A stretch of 64,000 bases of DNA from a virus (IMGVR_UViG_3300032053_000032:1-64000); one strand, 5' to 3'. Positions 219-27,729 are shown, counted from the stretch's first letter. Numbers and translations are program-made. Notes: generated by a model from the sequence alone, not told the origin.

Positions 219-668
219 ATGGGACAGCAAGCGAAGGCCAAGGCGCAAGTTCGCCACATGAAGAAGCTGTTCGGTGGCAAGGAGACAGCCTTCGAGGTTC
301 ACCAGAAATACGGCTTCCGCATGGCGTGCTGCGCTCCGGGAACCAACAAGAACAATAGGTGCGGCGGACCCCCGGTCATTCGCATCCGCGTGTACACGCC
401 GTACCTGGAGCTGTTCTCCAAGCACCCGGAGTTCTGCATCCAGATCGCCGCCGGGAACCGCGATGGTTCCTACGTTCCCACGGTCGACACGAAGTGGGGA
501 CCGATGGTGCTCCTCTCCGACATGACCGCCTGCAAGTTTCACCAGCAGAGCGCCGAGCGCGCCGCCGCCCACCCTCCAAAAGGCCTGCAGACCTGGGTGA
601 CCATCGACCGCGGCCCGACCGCCGAGAAGGTCGTGGGTCAGGTTCCTCTAGTCGGCGTGAGTTCGTAG
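219..668 (+). CDS. hypothetical protein
   Basis: ORF with genome-typical codon usage; ATG at 219 lies 6 nt after GTGACA-N17-CATCCT (leaderless-type promoter). Confidence 0.65.
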   Translation: MGQQAKAKAQVRHMKKLFGGKETAFEVHQKYGFRMACCAPGTNKNNRCGGPPVIRIRVYTPYLELFSKHPEFCIQIAAGNRDGSYVPTVDTKWGPMVLLSDMTACKFHQQSAERAAAHPPKGLQTWVTIDRGPTAEKVVGQVPLVGVSS

Positions 669-1358
669 GTGAGCGCGCAGACCGACCATGAGGCTATCGC
701 GGATGTGATGAACGGTGGCGTGGGTACTCCAACGGATGCGTCACATGCAGAACTAGCACACCATCAGCATGTGCGGATGTATCGCGCTCGCGCTGAGGAA
801 GCAAAACGTCGTGGTGACAAGCCACAGCAAGCTCTGGCGGAACGCCTAGCTGCGGCGCATCACCGCGTTCGCGCCGCGCTTCTTACCAACCCAGGTAGTT
901 TCAGCAAAGCTGACTATAACGCAGCCCATGCCGTTGCGTCGCCAAAATCCCTCATGGGTGCCACTTCCAAAGTAAACATGGTTGATGGTGATCGCCGCGG
1001 GGCCTCGATGAACCTACTGCATCCAGGTCTGCATTCAGAGGCACACTTTGAGAGTGCAAAGGCAGAAGCAGGTGGAAGCCCCGCGCTACATGCGCAGCTT
1101 CGTGATGAGAACATACAGGCCGCAAGAAAGATGGTTGATAGCAACAAACCTGCCGCCGCTGAGCACCTGAAACTCGCCGCCGCTCACGAGAAGCTGCGGC
1201 ATGACGCCGAAGGTCCAGAGCGTCCAGAGCAGAAGTCGCAGGGCGCGAAGTTAAAGCAGCTCGCGTCTTCCAAGAAGAAGGGGGACAGGGAAGCTCCTGG
1301 CAAGATCGCCGCCGGTCGTGAGTACGCACGTGATGACAAGGGGGAGTTTTCGTCGTGA
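669..1358 (+). CDS. His/Ala-rich helical protein ending in RDDKGEFSS, possibly an internal virion protein
   Basis: 229 aa; C-terminal motif shared with 15374-16285; located in head module. Confidence 0.55.
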   Translation: MSAQTDHEAIADVMNGGVGTPTDASHAELAHHQHVRMYRARAEEAKRRGDKPQQALAERLAAAHHRVRAALLTNPGSFSKADYNAAHAVASPKSLMGATSKVNMVDGDRRGASMNLLHPGLHSEAHFESAKAEAGGSPALHAQLRDENIQAARKMVDSNKPAAAEHLKLAAAHEKLRHDAEGPERPEQKSQGAKLKQLASSKKKGDREAPGKIAAGREYARDDKGEFSS

Positions 1359-1810
1359 GCGATCTCCTTGCCAAGCATGTCCGCGCCAAGCGTGAGAAGG
1401 ACGACGACGAGAAGGACGAGCTTCTCTCCGATCAGGAGAAGGGCGCGCGCCAGAAAATCATCGACGGCGCCAAGGAAGCTGGCGCTACCCTCGACCGTCC
1501 TGACGCCCGCGGTGGGCTGCCGCCGTCTCTGGTGCTTGGCGCCTTCCGTCGCGACAAGTTCGCCTGCACCGACTGCGGATCGCAGAAGGACATCGGACCG
1601 CACCACATCGGTGGGATCCCAGACACCAAGAAGAAGTCCCTCGCAGGGCACAAGAACAAGCTGTCGAACATCTCCACGCTCTGCGTGAAGTGCCACGACA
1701 AGGAGCACAACAAGGCTCGCGAGGAGGGGCTTGACTCCAGCCAGGTGCTCCCGAAGGGCGACGTCGGAACCGACCGCGATCACGGTGACAAGCCGGTAGC
1801 ACGGGTCTGA
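1355..1810 (+). CDS. HNH endonuclease
   Basis: RRDKFACTDCG...HHI...NKLSNISTLCVKCHDKEH, the classic CxxC-HH-N-CxxCH HNH signature. Confidence 0.85.
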   Translation: MSDLLAKHVRAKREKDDDEKDELLSDQEKGARQKIIDGAKEAGATLDRPDARGGLPPSLVLGAFRRDKFACTDCGSQKDIGPHHIGGIPDTKKKSLAGHKNKLSNISTLCVKCHDKEHNKAREEGLDSSQVLPKGDVGTDRDHGDKPVARV

Positions 1811-1895
1811 CGTGATGTCGCTAAAACCCTTCGGGGCCTTCTCGCCGAATCCCGTCGGGTGAGAAGAAGTAGCTGTCCTGCCCAAGCCTAGCGGA

Positions 1896-3980
1896 ATGGT
1901 CGACTTCACTACCTTCGCGCCAGGTGCCCGTATCATGCTCGTGCTGCCCTCCGGTCCAGCTCTAGCCGAGGCGCTACGTGCTTGCTGGGCAAACGGCCTG
2001 GTCGCGATCCCACGCGATCCCAAGAGCAAGCAGAACGTCCAGGTCGCGGAGCACGCGCAGGTCCACGCGCGCGTAGATGTTGACGGAGTTCATCCGAATC
2101 ACGTAGTTCATCCACTCTCGCCGCTCCACGACCGCCTCATCCTTTACACGTCCGGCTCTACAGGAGATCCGAAGGGCGTCGTGCTTACCGAGGCCGCGCT
2201 GAAGTCGAACGCGGTCCAGGTCGCGAACCGTCACGACTTCGCCTCGGGCGCGCACGCTACCTGCTTGTCACTGCATCACTGCAACGCGATCTGCGGGTCG
2301 CTCTACGGAACGATGCTCACGGACTCGCGCCTGATCATCTCGGGCAGCAGCGACATGACCGCGTACTTCTCGGCCATCGAGACGCACCGTGTATGCACCG
2401 CTACCATCGTGCCCGCTCTCCTTGAGAAGCTCCTCGCCTCGCCTCCGCGCTGGCCTTCCCGCCTCAAGTACCTGATCACGGCTGCGGCCCCGCTCACCCG
2501 CGACCTCGCGCGCCGCTTCCGTGATGTCTACGGTGAAGAGCGTCTCGTGCAGGGGTACGGGATGACCGAGGCGGTCAACTTCTCGACCACTATGCCGAAC
2601 CTCGCCGGGAAAGCTTGGTCAGCTGCCTACGTGAACCAGCACCCACCGGTCGGCGCCCCGCTGCCTGGAACCGAGCTGCGCGTGGAAGATGGCGAGGTTC
2701 AGGTGCGCGGCTTGAACTTGATGCGGGAATACTGGCGGAACCCGGAAGCTACAGCGGAAAAGTACACCTCGGACGGATGGTTCAAGACCGGAGACGTCGG
2801 GTTCGTAGGGGATGACGGACTTCTCCGCTTGAGCGGGCGCATCTCGGAGGGGATCAACTGGCGTGGCGCGATGACCTACCCGACAGACTTCGAGGAGTCC
2901 TGGGCGCTCAATTCACCCGGCTGCGCGATATCAGAGCGTGGTGTCTGTGTTCCTGTTGTTGACCCGGACGGACGCGAGCACCCCGCGGTAGTCGGCTGCT
3001 TGACAGCCGTCGCGCTCGGCTTGAACGACCCACCACCGATGGCGATGGACTCCGGTCCCGTGCAGGGGACGTTGACGTTCAAACCTCGCCGCCGCTCGAT
3101 GTCCACGGCCCTTACCTGTCGCTTCGATGATGACGTGCGCTACGAAGCGTTGCGCATTACTGCGTTCGAGGTGTACTCCATGATGGACTACCAGAGCCTA
3201 GACGCTCTCCAGATTTCGTCAGTGCAGGAACGCTGGATCGTAGATCGGGCTCTCGAATTTCGCCAGAAAATGACCGGCGCGCGGCTCGGTGACAAGCGGC
3301 TTGCCAGAATCGGCGGCGCCTGGAACGACGTCTGGAGCGAGGCCCTTCAAGCTCTCGGCACGCAGTGGGGTGCGCACGATGCGGAGCACCCTAAGCGGAT
3401 CATCACCGAGATCCCCAGCCTATGGCGCCGCCTCATGCACGAGTGGCCGATGGGCGTCTACGGTGACCTCGTGGCGGACATCATCGCTCGTCGAGGTCTA
3501 CTTCATGGCCGCGCGCTGGAGTTCGGGACTGGGGTAGGGAACACGTCCGGTCTTCTCAACCGCGCTAAGTTTGACGAGCTGTTCCTCACGGATTTGCAGC
3601 AGAGCACGAAGCGTGGTGTGCGGGCGTGGAACTTCGACTGCGGGGAACCTTATACCGTGGGGCTAGACCTCATATTCGGGACGAACGCCTTGCACTGTTC
3701 CAAGAGCCCCACGAAGGCCCTGCACACCATGTTCACGATGCTCAAGCCAGGAGGGCACCTTGTAATTGGGGAAGGTGAAGCTCACCCGTATCGTGACGAG
3801 CCCTGGGCACTGCACGCGTTCTTCGGCCTCTTCGACGGCTGGTGGGACGTCGGCGGGTTCCTAACGCGCCGCGGATGGGTCGAGCTGCTTGAGCGCACCG
3901 GCTTCGTCGATGTAGGATGGAGCGTGTTCCGTGCCGGCAGGTTTGATCTCGGAGGTGCTCTATGGGCGCGCAGGCCCTAG
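1896..3980 (+). CDS. ANL-family adenylating enzyme (acyl-CoA/acyl-AMP ligase) fused to a class I SAM methyltransferase
   Basis: Ligase motifs ILYTSGSTGDPKGV (A3), QGYGMTE (A5), GWFKTGDVG (A7) and TFKPRR (A10 Lys); methyltransferase motifs ALEFGTGVG, DLIFGTNALH, LKPGGHLVIGE and FGLFDGWW. Confidence 0.85.
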   Translation: MVDFTTFAPGARIMLVLPSGPALAEALRACWANGLVAIPRDPKSKQNVQVAEHAQVHARVDVDGVHPNHVVHPLSPLHDRLILYTSGSTGDPKGVVLTEAALKSNAVQVANRHDFASGAHATCLSLHHCNAICGSLYGTMLTDSRLIISGSSDMTAYFSAIETHRVCTATIVPALLEKLLASPPRWPSRLKYLITAAAPLTRDLARRFRDVYGEERLVQGYGMTEAVNFSTTMPNLAGKAWSAAYVNQHPPVGAPLPGTELRVEDGEVQVRGLNLMREYWRNPEATAEKYTSDGWFKTGDVGFVGDDGLLRLSGRISEGINWRGAMTYPTDFEESWALNSPGCAISERGVCVPVVDPDGREHPAVVGCLTAVALGLNDPPPMAMDSGPVQGTLTFKPRRRSMSTALTCRFDDDVRYEALRITAFEVYSMMDYQSLDALQISSVQERWIVDRALEFRQKMTGARLGDKRLARIGGAWNDVWSEALQALGTQWGAHDAEHPKRIITEIPSLWRRLMHEWPMGVYGDLVADIIARRGLLHGRALEFGTGVGNTSGLLNRAKFDELFLTDLQQSTKRGVRAWNFDCGEPYTVGLDLIFGTNALHCSKSPTKALHTMFTMLKPGGHLVIGEGEAHPYRDEPWALHAFFGLFDGWWDVGGFLTRRGWVELLERTGFVDVGWSVFRAGRFDLGGALWARRP

Positions 3981-4363
3981 TTGAGGGCGCTCTTCTTGGG
4001 ATGATCAGGATGGACGCCACGGAGGCGCGCATGTTTGCGCTCCTGTACGACCGCAACCCAGTGCATGTTGAAGTCGCCCGCAGGAACGCTATCTTGCCGG
4101 AAGACACGGTGAGCGGTCTGTACGTCGTCGCGAAGGCGCTAGATCTGCTTCAAGTTGCCGCCCCCGATCACACCGCGCGCGTGCTCTGCGCCAGCAAGAT
4201 GTCCGTCCGCTGGCTCGCTCCTGTGATCGGAGATCAGTGGGTTTCGCTCCGTATCGAGACGGTCATCATGGAACGGACGTCCAGAATCTTCCTGCGGCTG
4301 CTGCTCCGCGTTGGTGATGTCCCGGTAGCCGAGATCGACCTTCACCAGATCCTGGCCGTGTAG
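3962..4363 (+). CDS. MaoC-like hot-dog fold (R)-hydratase/dehydratase
   Basis: FALLYDRNPVH matches the MaoC D-x-N-P-x-H dyad; later VRWLAPVIGD; GGAGGT RBS at 3951-3956. Confidence 0.7.
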   Translation: MGAQALVEGALLGMIRMDATEARMFALLYDRNPVHVEVARRNAILPEDTVSGLYVVAKALDLLQVAAPDHTARVLCASKMSVRWLAPVIGDQWVSLRIETVIMERTSRIFLRLLLRVGDVPVAEIDLHQILAV

Positions 4364-5316
4364 TGGCCCGCCGCGACTACGAAGCCGCCATCGAGGAGCA
4401 CCGGCAGAAGCTTCACCGGATCCTCGACCGTCGTGGCGTAGTACAGATGAAACGGCTGTACCAGGACGCCCACGCCGAGCTAGAGCGGAAGCTCACCGCC
4501 GTAGCTGGTCGCAAGGCGACCATGACCTCGTTTCAGCAGAAGCTGCTACTCCTTCAGGTGAAGCACGGGCAGCAGGACATCTCGAAGCGCATGACCAAGG
4601 GCCTTTCTGCCGCGAGCGCCGATGCTCAGGTCGAGTCGCTCCACTCCCTTACGAAGACCGTCTCCCGCGCGGCCCCGCAGTTCCGTGGGGCGCAGGTTTC
4701 GCTACCTATCGAGGAGGCTGCGAGGTTCCGCGGCATCATCGACAAGCGCCGGACGTCGTTGCTTCAGGCGCACGCCACGTCCATGTCGACACATAGTGCC
4801 CGCGTCGTGAAGAAGATGGAGACGGAGCTGTCCAACTCACTCATGTCCGGTGAGTCGAATGACGAGGCAATCCAGCGCGTAGTTGGAGTAGCCGACGTCG
4901 AGTGGTGGCAGGCCGAGAGAATTGTCAAAACCGAGCTTGCGTGGGCCTACAATTCGACGCAGGCCGACGGTATCGCCGCGAGCGCGGAAGCTGTTCCCGG
5001 ACTCATGATGCGCTGGACTGAGAACTGCGACGATACGTCAAGCGCGCCTCTCGATGACCGTGTCGGCGTAGACTCCATCGCGATGCACGGACAGGTTGCG
5101 AAGCCGAACGGCGGGATGTTCACCTGCCCACCTACTGCGCCCCTCCCCGACGCGAAGGGGCAGACACGCGTGTCGGACTCGCTCTCCGGTGAAAGCTGGG
5201 CGTTTCCCCCCAACCGTCCGAACGATCGTGCTGCGCTCTCCCCTTGGCACCCGGACTGGGGTGTTCCTGGCTGGGTATGGCGTGGAAGACGTGTTCCCGT
5301 CACCTCAGTTCGATGA
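4363..5316 (+). CDS. head morphogenesis protein (phage Mu F / SPP1 gp7-like minor head protein)
   Basis: AERIVKTELAWAYN, DDRV...HGQV and PPNRPNDR motifs; upstream of scaffold and capsid. Confidence 0.8.
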   Translation: MARRDYEAAIEEHRQKLHRILDRRGVVQMKRLYQDAHAELERKLTAVAGRKATMTSFQQKLLLLQVKHGQQDISKRMTKGLSAASADAQVESLHSLTKTVSRAAPQFRGAQVSLPIEEAARFRGIIDKRRTSLLQAHATSMSTHSARVVKKMETELSNSLMSGESNDEAIQRVVGVADVEWWQAERIVKTELAWAYNSTQADGIAASAEAVPGLMMRWTENCDDTSSAPLDDRVGVDSIAMHGQVAKPNGGMFTCPPTAPLPDAKGQTRVSDSLSGESWAFPPNRPNDRAALSPWHPDWGVPGWVWRGRRVPVTSVR

Positions 5317-5351: not shown

Positions 5352-5879
5352 ATGGCGCTTCTCCCGAAGGCACTGAAAGCATTCTCCGCGAAGGGTGGCG
5401 GCAAGCCCAAGATGCCGTTCGGCAAGAACGCCAAGAAGGGCGACGGCAAGAACCCGTTTGCCAAGAAGGCCGCCGCCGAGTCCGATCCTGACGATGAGGA
5501 TGACGAGGAGCCGGACGAGGACGAGGACGAGGACGAGGAGGAGGGTGGCCAGAAGGACGACGGAACCCACCCCGAGCCCGACGGCGACGAGGGTCAGGGC
5601 GGCGTCGGAGATGACGACGGCGACGAGTACAACGACGAGAAGATCGCCAGCATCGCGGCGCAGGTTGCCGCGGGTACGCTCCCGGACGATCCAGACCTCG
5701 CGGACGCCGCCGAGAGCTACAACCCGGAGACGGACGGGACGCCGTCCTGGGTGTCCGATGAAGCTCTCTGGGAGAAGGCCAAGGGTGTCGTCGACCCCGA
5801 AGGCGCCGGAGCGAAGTACGACACCCCGTGGGTGGTCGTCGCGGCAGTCTTCGAGGAGATGGGTGGCGCGCACGTTTAA
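5352..5879 (+). CDS. acidic hypothetical head-module protein
   Basis: GGAGG RBS; Lys-rich N-terminus, long D/E tract, C-terminal ALWEKAK...EMGG domain. Confidence 0.7.
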   Translation: MALLPKALKAFSAKGGGKPKMPFGKNAKKGDGKNPFAKKAAAESDPDDEDDEEPDEDEDEDEEEGGQKDDGTHPEPDGDEGQGGVGDDDGDEYNDEKIASIAAQVAAGTLPDDPDLADAAESYNPETDGTPSWVSDEALWEKAKGVVDPEGAGAKYDTPWVVVAAVFEEMGGAHV

Positions 5880-5889
5880 CACCGCGCAC

Positions 5890-5918
5890 TTGCACCCGTA
5901 ACGTCCTGCCTGTACCAT
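5890..5918 (+). promoter_or_regulatory. sigma70-type promoter for the micropeptide array (leaderless)
   Basis: TTGCAC(5890)-N17-TACCAT(5913), then 7 nt to ATG 5926. Confidence 0.6.
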
Positions 5919-5925
5919 CACCTTC

Positions 5926-6174
5926 ATGTCGATCAAGTTCCTCCCCTACACGGGACCAGAATCGGTGGTTCCGGATGACGCGCAGCTCGCGCCGTCAGCG
6001 GAACGCGTGTACGACGAGACGATCAACATCCCGGAAGCGACGATGCTCCGCGCGATGACTCGTCCGAACTGGGACAACCCGATCATGGCCCCCGCGTACA
6101 CGGAAGCCGAGCAGCTTCCAGCCCCGCAGGCGCTCGGGCAGAACGCATCCCCTTTCAAGCTCGGAGGCAAGTAG
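5926..6174 (+). CDS. micropeptide 1 (C-terminal SPFKLGGK)
   Basis: 82 aa; conserved C-terminal PFKL motif. Confidence 0.75.
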   Translation: MSIKFLPYTGPESVVPDDAQLAPSAERVYDETINIPEATMLRAMTRPNWDNPIMAPAYTEAEQLPAPQALGQNASPFKLGGK

Positions 6175-6175
6175 C

Positions 6176-6400
6176 ATGGCTGACGACCACACCGTGAAGC
6201 GCGGCCCGCGCGCGAAGGCGCTCTCCGGATCGCTGATCTCCCCCGAAGGCAACGACATGGGCGGGAAGTACGACCCGCAGGCTGGTCACCCCCCGATGGA
6301 CGGCCTGCCAACGTCGGAGTACAAGGGGCTCACACCCGGTATCAACGGCAGCGCCTCTGCTCCCGAGCACACCACGCCGTTCAAGCTTGGAGGAACCTGA
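6176..6400 (+). CDS. micropeptide 2 (C-terminal TPFKLGGT)
   Basis: 74 aa; GGAGG RBS; NDM..KYD and PFKL motifs. Confidence 0.75.
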   Translation: MADDHTVKRGPRAKALSGSLISPEGNDMGGKYDPQAGHPPMDGLPTSEYKGLTPGINGSASAPEHTTPFKLGGT

Positions 6401-6564
6401 TGTACGACTGCAACGACATGAGCGACGTCGGCCAGGACAAGAAGTACCAGCAGCCGACGGACAAGTACGACGCCGATCAGGGCAAGTACAAGCAGCAGGA
6501 GATCGCCCTCAACGGCAAGGCTCCCGCCCCCGCGCACTCGACCCCGTTCAAGCTGAACGGCTGA
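6400..6564 (+). CDS. micropeptide 3 (C-terminal TPFKLNG), not in the ORF track
   Basis: Hand translation MYDCNDMSDVGQDKKYQQPTDKYDADQGKYKQQEIALNGKAPAPAHSTPFKLNG (54 aa); TGATG coupling and GGAGG RBS. Confidence 0.8.
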   Translation: MYDCNDMSDVGQDKKYQQPTDKYDADQGKYKQQEIALNGKAPAPAHSTPFKLNG

Positions 6565-6582
6565 AAGGACAAGGACAAGACG

Positions 6583-6780
6583 ATGGCCGACAACACGAAC
6601 GACATGAGCAACGTGGGGCAGGACAAGCAGTACAAGCAGCCCACCGAGAAGTACGACGCCGATCACGGCAAGTACAACGACCCGATCGATGGTCAGCGCG
6701 GAACCGATGAGGGGAACATGTTCCCCCTCGACGCGCTCCCCATGGCTCCTGCGCCGAACCCCTTCAAGCTCGGCAAGTAG
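6583..6780 (+). CDS. micropeptide 4 (C-terminal NPFKLGK), paralog of peptide 3
   Basis: 65 aa; shares NDMSxVGQDKxYxQPTxKYDADxGKY with 6400-6564. Confidence 0.8.
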   Translation: MADNTNDMSNVGQDKQYKQPTEKYDADHGKYNDPIDGQRGTDEGNMFPLDALPMAPAPNPFKLGK

Positions 6781-6789
6781 CAGGACCGC

Positions 6790-7179
6790 GTGGCCGACAT
6801 CCTCCACCTGAGCGGTACGGTAGACGTGCAGCCGGCTTCTGGATTTCCATCCGGTGATCCGTCTACCGACATCCCGCTCGATGAGACGGTCACCCTCAAG
6901 CGTCAGATGCAGTCGGGTCGCGTCGACCTCGACACGGACGCGACCAAGGTCGTCAACTTTGGTGACCTCGCGGGCGCGAACGTCGTGATCCTACGCGCTA
7001 ACTTTGGCAAGGTGAAGGCTCGCTTCACCTCTGCGGATGGAGCGGTGCAGTCGATCCCTGTCGACCCGCTCTTGACGGTCATCTCGCTCAGCGTTCCGTT
7101 CACCGCGCTCGACTTGACGCGTGTGGCCGGTCAGGGGAATACGGTGCAGGTCAACTACTCGCTCGGCGAGAAAGCGTAA
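6790..7179 (+). CDS. hypothetical beta-rich virion protein
   Basis: 129 aa, AGGA RBS, head module. Confidence 0.65.
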   Translation: MADILHLSGTVDVQPASGFPSGDPSTDIPLDETVTLKRQMQSGRVDLDTDATKVVNFGDLAGANVVILRANFGKVKARFTSADGAVQSIPVDPLLTVISLSVPFTALDLTRVAGQGNTVQVNYSLGEKA

Positions 7180-7231: not shown

Positions 7232-7627
7232 ATGAGCACCCTTACCAAGACTGACACCATCAAGGACGAGCTGAACAACGCACTCCCAGGCAAGGTCGAG
7301 CCCGCGCTGTTCAAGCTCGGCCTCGGCGACTTGCTCACGCCGATCGTCGACGTCTCTGGTGTGATCACCGCGACCGCGAGCTACAAGCTCGCCAAGAAGG
7401 TGGTCAACGCGCTCAAGATCCAGGTGATCGCGTCCGGCACCGCCGGAGCGATCGGCCAGTACATCCTGGGCGAGGTCGGCATCGATCCGGGCGGCGCGGG
7501 CACCGCCGTCGGCGTCTGTACGCTGGGGGCCGACTTCCAGACGATCACGTTCCTGCACACCGTGACGAGCGTCAAGATCACGTACTTCGGAACGCCGGAC
7601 CTCTCCAAGCCGTTCCTGACCATCTAG
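7232..7627 (+). CDS. putative head decoration / structural protein
   Basis: 131 aa, AAGGAG RBS, highly expressed-type codon bias, just upstream of scaffold. Confidence 0.55.
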   Translation: MSTLTKTDTIKDELNNALPGKVEPALFKLGLGDLLTPIVDVSGVITATASYKLAKKVVNALKIQVIASGTAGAIGQYILGEVGIDPGGAGTAVGVCTLGADFQTITFLHTVTSVKITYFGTPDLSKPFLTI

Positions 7628-7801: not shown

Positions 7802-8614
7802 ATGCCGACCGATGAAGAGATCGCCGCCGCGAAGGCGGCAGAAGAGGCAGCCGCGAAAGCAGTTGCCGAGAAGCCCGTTGAGGGTACGCAGCCGACCCCG
7901 GATGGTGGGCTCAAGATCCTGAGCGCCGGTGCCTACAAGCGCATCAAGGACGACGCCGCCGCGAAGGGCGAGCGCCGCGCGCTGGAGAAGATGGCCCGCG
8001 AATCGGGTTTCGGCTCCGTTGAGGAGTTTCAGAAGGCCGCGAAGGGCTTCAAGGCTGGAACGACCACGCCGAAACCTGCCCCTGCTCCGCAGCAGAACGG
8101 GCAGCAGGCTCGCGATCCCGGCAGAGCACCCGCAGGGATGAGCAACCGCGAGAAGAACGCGTGGGACAAGGAGCGCGTCAAGATCCTCGCCGACTTCGAG
8201 GTGGTCAAGAAGCAGTCCGCCCTGAACGACAAGAAGTATCGCAAGGCGCGCAAAGACCTGGAGAACAAGGAGACGGAGATGGCGCTCCGCGAAGCTGCGG
8301 CAGCTGTCGGAATCCGCGACCTTGACTACGCCGTGCGCCTGCTCGAAAAGCACGTCGAGAATAAGGAAGAGAAGGATCTGGCCGGCTTCGATGAGGTCAA
8401 GTTCTTCGAGGGGCTGCGTACCCCGCATCCCTACCTGTTCGGCGAGCGCGTGACCCCGGCGCATACCGGAACCACCGCGCAGCCCCCGGTTCCGCCGAAG
8501 CCTGGCGACGCCGCCGCAGCTCATGCTCAGAACGGCAAGTTCGACGCGAGAAGCGCGACCGCAGAAGAAGTGCAGAAGCAGCTCGCCAAGCGCGGGATTC
8601 AGCCCGGCACCTAG
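7802..8614 (+). CDS. capsid scaffolding protein
   Basis: Charged coiled coil, HPYLF motif, Pro-rich tail, immediately upstream of the major capsid gene. Confidence 0.75.
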   Translation: MPTDEEIAAAKAAEEAAAKAVAEKPVEGTQPTPDGGLKILSAGAYKRIKDDAAAKGERRALEKMARESGFGSVEEFQKAAKGFKAGTTTPKPAPAPQQNGQQARDPGRAPAGMSNREKNAWDKERVKILADFEVVKKQSALNDKKYRKARKDLENKETEMALREAAAAVGIRDLDYAVRLLEKHVENKEEKDLAGFDEVKFFEGLRTPHPYLFGERVTPAHTGTTAQPPVPPKPGDAAAAHAQNGKFDARSATAEEVQKQLAKRGIQPGT

Positions 8615-8714: not shown

Positions 8715-10115
8715 GTGGCAGATTTCAGCACGATCCTTCAGTCCCCAGACATCCGCGCCATCGTTCAGGATGGCTTCCTGGAGCGCGCCTTCCACGACGG
8801 CCTCTTCCCCAAGATGCTGTTTCGTGGAGAGGCGACTCCGGTCCTCTGGCCCGCTCACGCCGGTGACAGCGCGATCTTCACGGGCGTCGCTCCCGTGAAG
8901 AAGAAGATGAAGCCGATCGTGCCTGGGCAGGACCCCGGCGCTTCCGACTACCAGAAGGAGCAGTGGACCGCTGTCCTGCAGACGTACGGCGACTCCATCC
9001 CGACGCACATGCCGTCGTCGCTCGTCGCCATCGCGTCGCTGTTCCTCCGCAACGCTCAGCAGCTCGGCCTCGGCGCCGCGCGCACGCTGAACTCGCACGT
9101 CCGCAACCGCCTCTACAACGCGGGGCAGTCCGGCTGGACCGTTGCCGACGGCGCGCAGGTCGCGGTGACGGTGCTCCGCGTGAAGCGCCTCAACGGCTTC
9201 ACCACGGCGCGCCAGACGGGTGCGAACGCCACCGTTCGCTACGATCTCGTTTCTGCGGCGAACCCGCTCGCAGTCCTCATCTTCAACACGGGCACGGGCC
9301 TGGAGCAGTCGGTCAACGTCATCGGCTTCACCGCCGACAACTCGGGCGATCAGACCGGCCCCGGCACGATCACCGTGGACGCGGCCGTCACCGTGTCGAA
9401 CCGCGACTACGTGATCTCCGTCGATCGCACGTTCCTGGTGCGCGTCGGCGGTGGCAACAAGGTCGACTCGATCACCTCGGCCTCGCTCCTCAAGCTCGCC
9501 GACCTCCGCTCGGGCGTGTCGCGCCTTCAGCAGGAGAACGTCCCGGAGCACCCGGATGGGTACTTCCACTGCCACCTCGACCCCACGTCGCAGGCGCAGG
9601 TCTTCAACGACGCTGAGTGGCAGCGCCTGCTCACGTCGATGCCCGATGGCTTCCAGTACAAGTCGCTGGCGATCGGCCAGCTCCTTGGCGCGGTCTACTT
9701 CCGCAACTCGGAGTGCCCGCAGATCGAGACGATCGACCCGAACGACGGCGTCACCTTCTCGCTCGACGACAACTTCGCGGGCGAGCTGACCGCGAACGGC
9801 CTCGCGTCCGGCGTCAAGGTGCACCGCCCGCTGTTCACCGCGCAGGGCGGGATCATGGAGTACTACCAGGACCTCGGCGCCCTCATCACCGATGCGGGCA
9901 TCAACGGCAAGGTCGGGCAGTTCCAGATCACGAACAACGGCATCGAGGTCATGAGCGACCGTGTTCAGCTCATCATCCGCGCGCCGCTCAACAAGTTCCA
10001 GGACACGGTCGACACGACCTACAAGTTCCAGGGCGACTGGCCGGTCCGCACGGACTCGACGACCGGCGACGCGGCTCGCTACAAGCGCCAGCTCGTCATC
10101 GAACATGGGGCATGA
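8715..10115 (+). CDS. major capsid protein
   Basis: 466 aa, GGAGG RBS, strongest codon bias in the window, follows scaffold, followed by a terminator; C-terminal PLNKFQDTVDTTYKF resembles HK97-fold P-domain ends. Confidence 0.8.
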   Translation: MADFSTILQSPDIRAIVQDGFLERAFHDGLFPKMLFRGEATPVLWPAHAGDSAIFTGVAPVKKKMKPIVPGQDPGASDYQKEQWTAVLQTYGDSIPTHMPSSLVAIASLFLRNAQQLGLGAARTLNSHVRNRLYNAGQSGWTVADGAQVAVTVLRVKRLNGFTTARQTGANATVRYDLVSAANPLAVLIFNTGTGLEQSVNVIGFTADNSGDQTGPGTITVDAAVTVSNRDYVISVDRTFLVRVGGGNKVDSITSASLLKLADLRSGVSRLQQENVPEHPDGYFHCHLDPTSQAQVFNDAEWQRLLTSMPDGFQYKSLAIGQLLGAVYFRNSECPQIETIDPNDGVTFSLDDNFAGELTANGLASGVKVHRPLFTAQGGIMEYYQDLGALITDAGINGKVGQFQITNNGIEVMSDRVQLIIRAPLNKFQDTVDTTYKFQGDWPVRTDSTTGDAARYKRQLVIEHGA

Positions 10116-26505: not shown

Positions 26506-27729
26506 GTGGCAGACGCACCGTGGGACCGCACTATCATTCAGGCGCTTGAGCGCCCGATCTGCGACGACATCGATCAGGCGCAGTCGCAGATGGACGGCGC
26601 GCTTCGTGAGGTGCTCGACCGGATGCTCCTCCAAAGGACGTCGATCGCAAACGACGTCGGAGCGTGGAACAACAACGCCGCGGTCTTCTTTGGTGACGGC
26701 TTCAAGGTCCGTCCGGTCGCGGCTGCCCTCCAAGTGTCCGTCACCGCCGGGCTCGGCGTCGTGGTCGACACGACCGACGTCCCGATCGCGATCGGCGCTG
26801 GCATTGCTGGTGCCGCGGTTCCTGGCCTCGACGACCGCTCGCGTCTGAAGCCGCTCCCGCTGGAAGCGAACGCTGTCTTCAACATCCCAGCTCCCCCCGG
26901 CGTCGGGCTTCAGCGCTTCGACATCATCGAAGTGAAGCAGAGCCGCGTCATTACGAACGCGACCGCGCGCGCCGTCCTGAACACGGGCACAGGTATCTTC
27001 GCGCCGAACGTCGTGAACAAGACGCTGGAGTTCAAGCTCGACGGGCACGTGGGAACCGTCGTATCGCCGGCTGTGTCGGTTCAGTCGCTCGGCTACAAGC
27101 AGGGTGCGGCGGCGGCCGTGGCCGTATCACCGGCCGTCTCGCCTGGCTACACGATCATCGCGCGCATCCTCGTCATAAACGGCGCTATCAACGTCGATAA
27201 CGGCGTCATCCAGGACCTCAGGTCGCAGGCTGCATCTGGTGGGATGAGCCGTGTCGGGCTGCGCTTCACGATGCCGACGACGGGCGCTGCTGTGGTTCCC
27301 ACGATCACCAACCTGATCGCCCCTGCAGGGGCGGTCGCGGTGGTGGTAGGGCAGGCGTCCGGCTTTGCCTCGAACGCGACCTCAGCTCAGGCCAACGTCT
27401 ACATCATAGGCGCCGCCGTGGCGGGAGCGAACAACGCGATCACCGTGAACAGCGAGCACGTCAACACGCCAAACACCGTGTACGTATCGTCTTTCAACGT
27501 CTCTCCGCTCGGTGTTCTTGTACAGGGAATCACAGCCGCGGAGAAGGCAGAAATTGAGGGAGCCAACGCGAGCCCTGCTGGCCTCAAGGTCGCCGTGGGC
27601 CAACCGCGGCTGGCCTTCCGCGTGTTCTCGAACGCCCTCCTGAACGGTGGGTCCGTGCGCAGCATGGACGGGTCGCTCGGCGACCCGAACCCGATCCCGT
27701 ACCACGTCCAGATCGTGGGCGAGAGGTAG
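26506..27729 (+). CDS. tail / baseplate structural protein (fibre attachment)
   Basis: 407 aa; GDGFKV...VSVTAG and RFDIIEV motifs common in fibre N-terminal domains. Confidence 0.55.
   Translation: MADAPWDRTIIQALERPICDDIDQAQSQMDGALREVLDRMLLQRTSIANDVGAWNNNAAVFFGDGFKVRPVAAALQVSVTAGLGVVVDTTDVPIAIGAGIAGAAVPGLDDRSRLKPLPLEANAVFNIPAPPGVGLQRFDIIEVKQSRVITNATARAVLNTGTGIFAPNVVNKTLEFKLDGHVGTVVSPAVSVQSLGYKQGAAAAVAVSPAVSPGYTIIARILVINGAINVDNGVIQDLRSQAASGGMSRVGLRFTMPTTGAAVVPTITNLIAPAGAVAVVVGQASGFASNATSAQANVYIIGAAVAGANNAITVNSEHVNTPNTVYVSSFNVSPLGVLVQGITAAEKAEIEGANASPAGLKVAVGQPRLAFRVFSNALLNGGSVRSMDGSLGDPNPIPYHVQIVGER

Follow-up and report, generated by a model that had tools for sequence, protein, structure and literature searches.

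Candidate micropeptide families with a common C-terminal Pro-Phe tail at the start of a proposed capsid operon in uncultured tailed phages

Next to its head genes, an uncultured tailed phage carries four very small open reading frames (ORFs) whose products differ in most of their sequence and end in nearly the same few residues. The locus raises the questions of whether these ORFs are genuine genes, how they are expressed, and why proteins of different families should share one terminus. The phage genome (85,027 bp, 63% GC, 127-bp direct terminal repeats) represents a complete tailed phage from IMG/VR, and the window analyzed here is its first 64 kb. Near-identical copies of the phage were present in sediment metagenomes from several studies; contigs from four sediment runs were likewise near-identical, with one low-depth difference and without a population signal. 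Phage annotation routinely misses proteins shorter than 100 aa. A first-pass annotation of the window had described the array as four micropeptides with a shared tag, which was suggested to serve either as a capsid-loading or docking signal or as a recognition tag for a nearby ligase-methyltransferase.

Four small genes and their common tail

The four ORFs, of 82, 74, 54, and 65 aa, were confirmed as consecutive on the plus strand. One of them, the 54-aa ORF, is indeed absent from the ORF track, where it had been overlooked. Their positions, with the families to which we assigned them, are as follows.

5926 to 6174, plus strand: peptide 1, family A, 82 aa, pI 4.5, tail ending in NASPFKLGGK
6176 to 6400, plus strand: peptide 2, family B, 74 aa, tail ending in TTPFKLGGT
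6400 to 6564, plus strand: peptide 3, family C, 54 aa, tail ending in STPFKLNG
6583 to 6780, plus strand: peptide 4, family C (paralogue C'), 65 aa, tail ending in PNPFKLGK

As originally described, the ORFs terminate in SPFKLGGK, TPFKLGGT, TPFKLNG, and NPFKLGK, in each case behind a Pro/Ala-rich stretch. An internal YD is present in all four peptides and NDM in three of them, and the proposal that peptides 3 and 4 are duplicates was borne out by their 50% identity. A six-frame translation of the 85,027-bp genome contained PFKL five times, with four of the five occurrences located in the array, 2 or 3 residues before the stop codon. This concentration of PFKL tails is far beyond chance. When the C-terminal pattern was relaxed to P[FY]x[LIVM], only 6 of 749 ORFs (≥40 aa) matched, four of which were the array peptides. 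The codons used for the tail vary across the four genes (Pro, cct/ccg/ccg/ccc; Leu, ctc/ctt/ctg/ctc), indicating conservation at the protein level and no recent gene conversion. The only large protein of the genome that matched the relaxed tail pattern is encoded by an ORF at positions 26506 to 27729 (407 aa, ending in DPNPIPYHVQIVGER), probably by chance.

The genes of the array are tightly packed. A single nucleotide separates the stop codon of peptide 1 from the ATG of peptide 2, the TGA of the latter overlaps the ATG of peptide 3 (TGATG), and spacers of 18 nt and 9 nt precede the peptide 4 gene and the adjoining gene for a jelly-roll protein, respectively. Such tight or overlapping spacing is consistent with translational coupling. 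Moreover, peptides 2 and 3 have ribosome-binding sites (GGAGG and GGAGGA; positions 6160 to 6175 and 6385 to 6400) that are embedded in the Leu-Gly-Gly codons of the tail encoded just before, so that the Gly-Gly following PFKL is doubly constrained in peptides 1 and 2. Judged from sequence, the four ORFs are genuine genes of three small-protein families, namely, A, B, and the two-copy family C.

The peptide bodies had been expected to be disordered. This expectation held in part, since they were mostly unstructured in models, but residues 11 to 30 of peptide 4 were an exception. A single-sequence ESM model of peptide 4 was essentially disordered (pLDDT of 0.21), whereas AlphaFold2 with an alignment of 118 sequences yielded a mean pLDDT of 78.8, with values of ∼90 and one short helix at residues 11 to 30. 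Taken together, the low-structure models and this conserved segment indicate bodies that are nonglobular but contain a small conserved element. A fold search with the peptide 4 model retrieved no solved structure at a Z score of ≥2.

Three peptide families in a conserved head-gene module

Comparison with related phages separated the peptides into three orthologue groups: peptide 1 belongs to group A, peptide 2 to group B, and peptides 3 and 4 to group C/C'. In six relatives, family A orthologues retain both the M-x-x-K start and the P-F-K-x-L-K-G pattern of the tail. Family B is marked by the motif RTPRTQAEKxGT..GF..YD..GHP and a median pI of 9.3; 60 homologues of 65 to 91 aa, all of them unnamed, were found among 5.8 billion clustered proteins. 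Family C has a median pI of 5.0 and the motif GQDKxYKDxxDxYDAEHGKY...lPxAPDPSPFKLG. It comprised 194 clusters (E ≤ 1e−3) among 1.84 billion representative proteins, and the best 150 of these 194 clusters were all 48 to 99 aa in length and stand-alone, with no fusions. Each body belongs to a conserved family of orthologues that has its own motifs and is not interchangeable cargo.

When the peptides were compared by profile with Pfam, PHROGs (all 160 aligned members), and the PDB, no match was obtained, and the ESM Atlas returned unnamed clusters only. Against 50,697 phage records, neither megablast with the region nor tblastn with peptide 4 and consensus-like members of families B and C retrieved anything, and no homologue from a cultured phage was found in these records. 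As far as these searches reach, the array is a widespread, unannotated, and previously undescribed set of three micropeptide families of uncultured phages. The three families, unannotated and represented by hundreds of metagenomic members, stand first in the proposed capsid operon and have one terminal hook in common.

The tag itself had been written as PFKL(G/N). A common tail that is conserved in relatives was confirmed, with P-F retained across hundreds of homologues; its core, however, is P-F-x-hydrophobic and not PFKL. The conserved element is also wider than these four residues, reading P-[FY]-x-[LIV]-[GK] with a basic residue next, or (l)PxAPDPSPFKLG in family C, and tails of relatives include PFVLK, PFTLKGK, PFALGGGK, PFTIKGA, PFANLKK, and PFK. 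It is located 3 to 18 residues from the C terminus and is preceded by a Pro/Ala-rich linker. P-F was found in 135 of the 150 listed representatives of family C, the others having P-Y, P-I, P-L, P-V, or similar. The residues after P-F in this family are K, T, S, or A, then L, I, or V, and then G, and a K or R occurs after P-F in nearly all of its tails (138 of 142). In profile-profile comparisons, family A aligned with B and with C over the PF tail only, and B aligned with C over the last 28 columns, a weak match at 61% probability. The tail is therefore the sole element common to all three families.

Within a genome, tails tend to agree: all four in the window read PFKL, two in the group of contig L007 end in PFK-stop, and two in contig L028 read PFANLK (related contigs are designated by L numbers throughout). 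The residue after P-F was identical in 12 of 27 within-genome pairs, compared with an expectation of 5.7 ± 1.9 from shuffles made inside orthologue groups (p ∼ 0.004), a statistic that ignores phylogeny. The capsid tree of the relatives is an unresolved star, from which independent origins of the tail variants are not countable. We count the within-genome agreement as a sign that the tails may have a common binding partner.

The genes surrounding the array, including those for the scaffolding and major capsid proteins, are as follows.

1355 to 1810, upstream of the peptides: HNH gene
1896 to 3980, same strand as the peptides: AMP-binding/methyltransferase fusion (ANL-methyltransferase), 694 aa
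3962 to 4363, same strand as the peptides: MaoC-like gene
4363 to 5316, upstream of the peptides: MuF-like minor head protein
∼5352 to 5879: acidic protein with an extended D/E run; its C-terminal domain is conserved (..W.KA...DPEG.GAKYD.PY.V.A.VYK.MGG)
6790 to 7179, plus strand: jelly-roll protein, 129 aa, AlphaFold2 pLDDT of 91.6
7232 to 7627, plus strand: 131-aa protein between the jelly-roll and scaffold genes, 100 to 155 aa in relatives
7802 to 8614, plus strand: scaffolding protein (Pfam PF06810 at 7.6e−8; phrog_194), C terminus QLAKRGIQPGT
8715 to 10115, plus strand: major capsid protein (phrog_1357 at 3.9e−12), last gene of the proposed operon

The capsid protein shares 29% identity with that of Streptomyces phage Kromp and 54 to 64% with those of syntenic relatives. 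A search with it retrieved seven viral contigs, six of which (54 to 64% capsid identity, 50 to 67% GC) are organized like the window, with three or four micropeptide genes followed by genes for a jelly-roll protein (126 to 131 aa), a protein of 100 to 155 aa, the scaffold, and the capsid protein. Back-translated motif scans revealed the same order in L013, L015/L017/L019, L021, L023/L027, L024, and L026, and it was also found in L028. Overall, this gene order was invariant in 13 distinct related contigs, with capsid identities of 54 to 64% where measured, and conservation of the peptides spans phages of 48 to 67% GC. The array was absent from the more distant capsid relatives Kromp and phiKX1 and is thus not required by this capsid fold in general.

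The genes on the upstream side are less constant. In relatives with a readable upstream gene, the array is preceded by an acidic protein, a coiled-coil protein, or an unrelated gene; the acidic protein occupies this place in the window, L003, L004, L007, and L013 and not in L005 and L008. A PF motif at the N terminus of this acidic protein was considered and dismissed, as it occurs in the window and L004 only and is not conserved. In L023, L026, and L027, a gene ending in TSCMLGAFR...LSLIR precedes peptide A and replaces those for the MuF-like and acidic proteins, which places the module boundary exactly at peptide A. The genes for the enzyme and the MaoC-like protein (1896 to 4363) were part of the head module in this phage only, when compared with five relatives searched.

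Two further proteins of the module deserve mention. The jelly-roll protein has a generic eight-stranded fold, with Z scores of 8 to 10 to GOLD, Ena, and viral jelly rolls; its best viral look-alikes are uncharacterized phage proteins, and comparison of the model with known folds gave generic matches only, with no assignable decoration-protein family. Both the jelly-roll and the 131-aa protein might decorate or cement the head and might bind the PF tails. The 131-aa protein itself ends in KPFLTI, and its relatives retain an F 4 to 6 residues from the end.

A candidate leaderless promoter and the putative host

A TTGCAC-N17-TACCAT element 7 nt before the first ATG had been proposed as a promoter of the array and is present exactly as claimed.

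5890 to 5918, plus strand: candidate leaderless promoter, with −35 TTGCAC (5890 to 5895), a 17-nt spacer, −10 TACCAT (5913 to 5918), and 7 nt to the ATG at 5926

No ribosome-binding site is present before the ATG of peptide 1, and the element was not called by a generic sigma-70 scan. Within the window, the pattern TTGCAY-N18-A-N3-T-N7-ATG, which was defined after the sites had been seen, matched the peptide 1 site and four others, against none in 100 shuffles. Comparison among phages provided stronger evidence for a promoter than these counts. TTGNNN-N17-TAnnnT or a close variant was found 6 to 7 nt before the start of peptide A in L004, L005, L008, and L013, where the surrounding sequence is otherwise unalignable, and in a weaker form in L006. 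In L003 and L007, the gene for peptide A is instead coupled to the preceding gene for the acidic protein. Recurrence of the element before peptide A in at least four relatives supports its assignment as a putative leaderless promoter. Together with the changing identity of the upstream gene, such a promoter-like element fits a transcription unit beginning at peptide A, and no terminator-like site was predicted on the plus strand between 4300 and 10300. The candidate promoter, being conserved, would indicate where late capsid transcription begins in this clade.

A weak hint at the host came from L028, a contig binned in an Acidimicrobiaceae metagenome-assembled genome (MAG). L028 was the sole match for the module among 185,579 species genomes and carries it complete at positions 284 to 4424 (peptides, jelly-roll, scaffold, and capsid), with 62% capsid identity. 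By this one binning, which may be an artifact, the host could belong to the Acidimicrobiia (Actinomycetota), and such a host would fit leaderless promoters.

Possible roles of the peptides

We favor, with roughly even confidence, the reading that the peptides are abundant head-assembly or accessory peptides that use the PF hook to dock at a single site on a component of the head. The earlier suggestion of a capsid-loading or docking signal agrees with a tail that is shared, conserved, and located next to head genes, which falls short of proof. In the mechanism that we propose, the peptides would be the first products of a capsid operon that continues with the jelly-roll, 131-aa, scaffold, and capsid proteins, and they would be made in large amounts alongside scaffold and capsid protein from the leaderless promoter before peptide 1. 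Each peptide would insert its Pro-Phe hook into one common hydrophobic site, most plausibly on the inner face of the capsid protein and alternatively on the jelly-roll protein or the scaffold. The motifs of the bodies (RTPRTQAEK.. and GQDKxYKDxxDxYDAEHGKY) might add contacts and fold upon binding. In this role, the peptides would act as procapsid accessory or lining peptides, comparable to the disordered gp4 of phage Patience or to a scaffold split into small pieces, and would be neither a variable cargo library nor a modified natural product. More tentatively, and in our estimate with less than even probability, the Pro-Phe tail could be a new capsid-docking signal in tailed phages, equivalent to the encapsulin cargo-loading peptide and to the scaffold hook and transferable to other proteins, with a fixed set of three or four disordered micropeptides lining or stapling the shell from inside in capsid-like amounts, as a scaffold or cement in several small parts. 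Docking of the peptides on the shell would make them head components of a new type and their hook a new, short address peptide of HK97-fold capsids, and the tail might then be useful for loading foreign proteins into capsids. It would also extend the finding, made with Patience gp4, that disordered micropeptides can be true parts of a capsid.

Two characterized systems come close to the proposed docking. The scaffold of the staphylococcal phage 80alpha and the 72-aa CpmB protein of SaPI1 bind the capsid protein via a C-terminal helix-and-hook with an RIIK motif (PMC5644958). As proposed for the array, a small protein there places a hydrophobic and basic C-terminal hook into a cleft of an HK97-fold capsid protein, and several proteins use one hook and hence one docking site. 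In contrast, the peptides described here have no sequence similarity to these proteins and no helix predicted directly before the tail, and they are conserved and phage encoded, whereas CpmB is a satellite-encoded competitor. Mimicry of the phage's own scaffold tail, as in the 80alpha/CpmB case, was rejected: the scaffold ends in QLAKRGIQPGT in the window and in [KR]xG[LIF]N.. in relatives, compared with P-F-x-[LIV]-[GK] for the peptides. The second precedent is provided by the gp4 proteins of the Mycobacterium phages Patience (102 aa) and Adjutor (54 aa), which are located within capsid hexamers; Patience gp4 is a random coil when free and becomes ordered only in the capsid (PMC11965321). The gp4 proteins resemble the array in size (54 to 102 aa) and in their actinobacteriophage setting. 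Our peptide models showed little structure except for one short helix. However, gp4 has neither a PF tail nor shared motifs or sequence similarity and is encoded by a single gene apart from the capsid gene, while here three families carry one tail. Together, these cases illustrate that short hooks can dock small proteins and that proteins of 54 to 102 aa can be capsid parts.

Other known address peptides share fewer features with the array. The cargo-loading peptide of encapsulins is a short C-terminal motif behind a flexible Pro/Gly/Ala linker that binds the inner face of an HK97-fold shell. A short C-terminal motif after a flexible linker is likewise found here, but the encapsulin motif has another consensus and is carried by enzyme cargo, whereas the family C representatives listed (48 to 99 aa) include no fusion to an enzyme. 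Moreover, an encapsulin shell lacks portal, terminase, and tail, unlike the present complete tailed phage with its scaffold, capsid, and terminal repeats. The capsid-targeting sequence of phage T4 is N-terminal, is present on the internal proteins IPI to IPIII and on Alt, is removed by the prohead protease, and addresses variable cargo. As in T4, several small proteins encoded near head genes bear one terminal address; in the array, by contrast, the tag is C-terminal and the bodies constitute three conserved families. Conserved bodies in a fixed set of three or four peptides per phage speak against a T4-like library of variable cargo.

The T4 comparison bears directly on the reading that we rank second after head docking and consider rather unlikely, namely, that the peptides are packaged passengers, whose PF tail serves only for loading into the head and which are ejected into the host with the DNA as pilot, protective, or antidefense peptides. 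The presence of one terminal tag on otherwise unlike small proteins beside head genes would be expected of passengers. Furthermore, MuF-like minor head proteins are a class known to be packaged, and the array follows such a protein in the window and in some relatives; yet the MuF-like gene is not adjacent to the array in L005, L008, L023, and L026. Strong motifs specific to each of the three orthologue families, in a fixed set of three or four without a variable library, also speak against passengers, as does the result that no prohead protease or cleavage motif was detected in the head genes scanned, where the only signal was a weak match of the MuF-like protein to phrog_595 (E of 9e−4). The same positional and conservation evidence that favors head docking would also suit assembly chaperones or regulators acting outside the particle, which might, for example, use the PF tail to control the timing of assembly or to maintain the solubility of the capsid, jelly-roll, or scaffold protein before being released; small disordered proteins often serve as chaperones. 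As a chaperone set for one operon, however, three distinct conserved families with a common tail would be unusual, with no precedent among the families searched (Pfam, PHROGs, and PDB), and we regard this role as improbable.

Considerably less probable still is that the tail mimics a linear motif of the host, such as the C-terminal peptide of FtsZ or the tip of SSB, and titrates a host protein late in infection. The layout is similar in that a disordered linker leads to a short C-terminal peptide with both P and F; the Acidimicrobiaceae MAG that harbors a related module encodes an FtsZ with the C terminus DVPSFLR and an SSB with the C terminus DDEEPF. Mimicry of both tails was nevertheless rejected on register and charge: the FtsZ register is P-x-F-L-R as opposed to P-F-x-L-G/K in the phage, and the SSB tail is acidic with F as the last residue, whereas the phage tail is basic with an internal F. 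The fixed position of the array in the capsid operon also argues for a structural role. As for the nearby ligase-methyltransferase, the peptides would be substrates of this adenylating enzyme and the MaoC-like protein, with the PF tail being recognized and a Lys acylated or otherwise modified. The proximity of these genes on the same strand (1896 to 3980 and 3962 to 4363, with the peptides from 5926 onward) and the Lys or Arg that nearly always occurs after P-F would be in line with such a modification. The 694-aa enzyme, however, was absent from the records of the five relatives searched, among them a 68-kb contig with an estimated completeness of 77%, nor did it occur directly before the module in any relative; the peptides are conserved without it. 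Co-conservation with a modifying enzyme, as expected of precursors of ribosomally synthesized natural products (RiPPs), was thus not observed, and the bodies have no features of a RiPP core region. The suggestion of a follower tag with Lys acylation was left unsupported, and the substrate reading, which appears largely refuted by the gene content of the relatives, is the one to which we give the least credence. The genes at 1896 to 4363 appear to be an accessory insertion that has nothing to do with the peptides.

In L009, a distant relative whose capsid protein is 31% identical to that of the window, a single divergent peptide of 72 aa is encoded in the same position (3544 to 3762). In place of the P-F tail it contains PAMPMPVKL, which is followed by 15 more residues. 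This peptide may be an ancestral or degenerate form.
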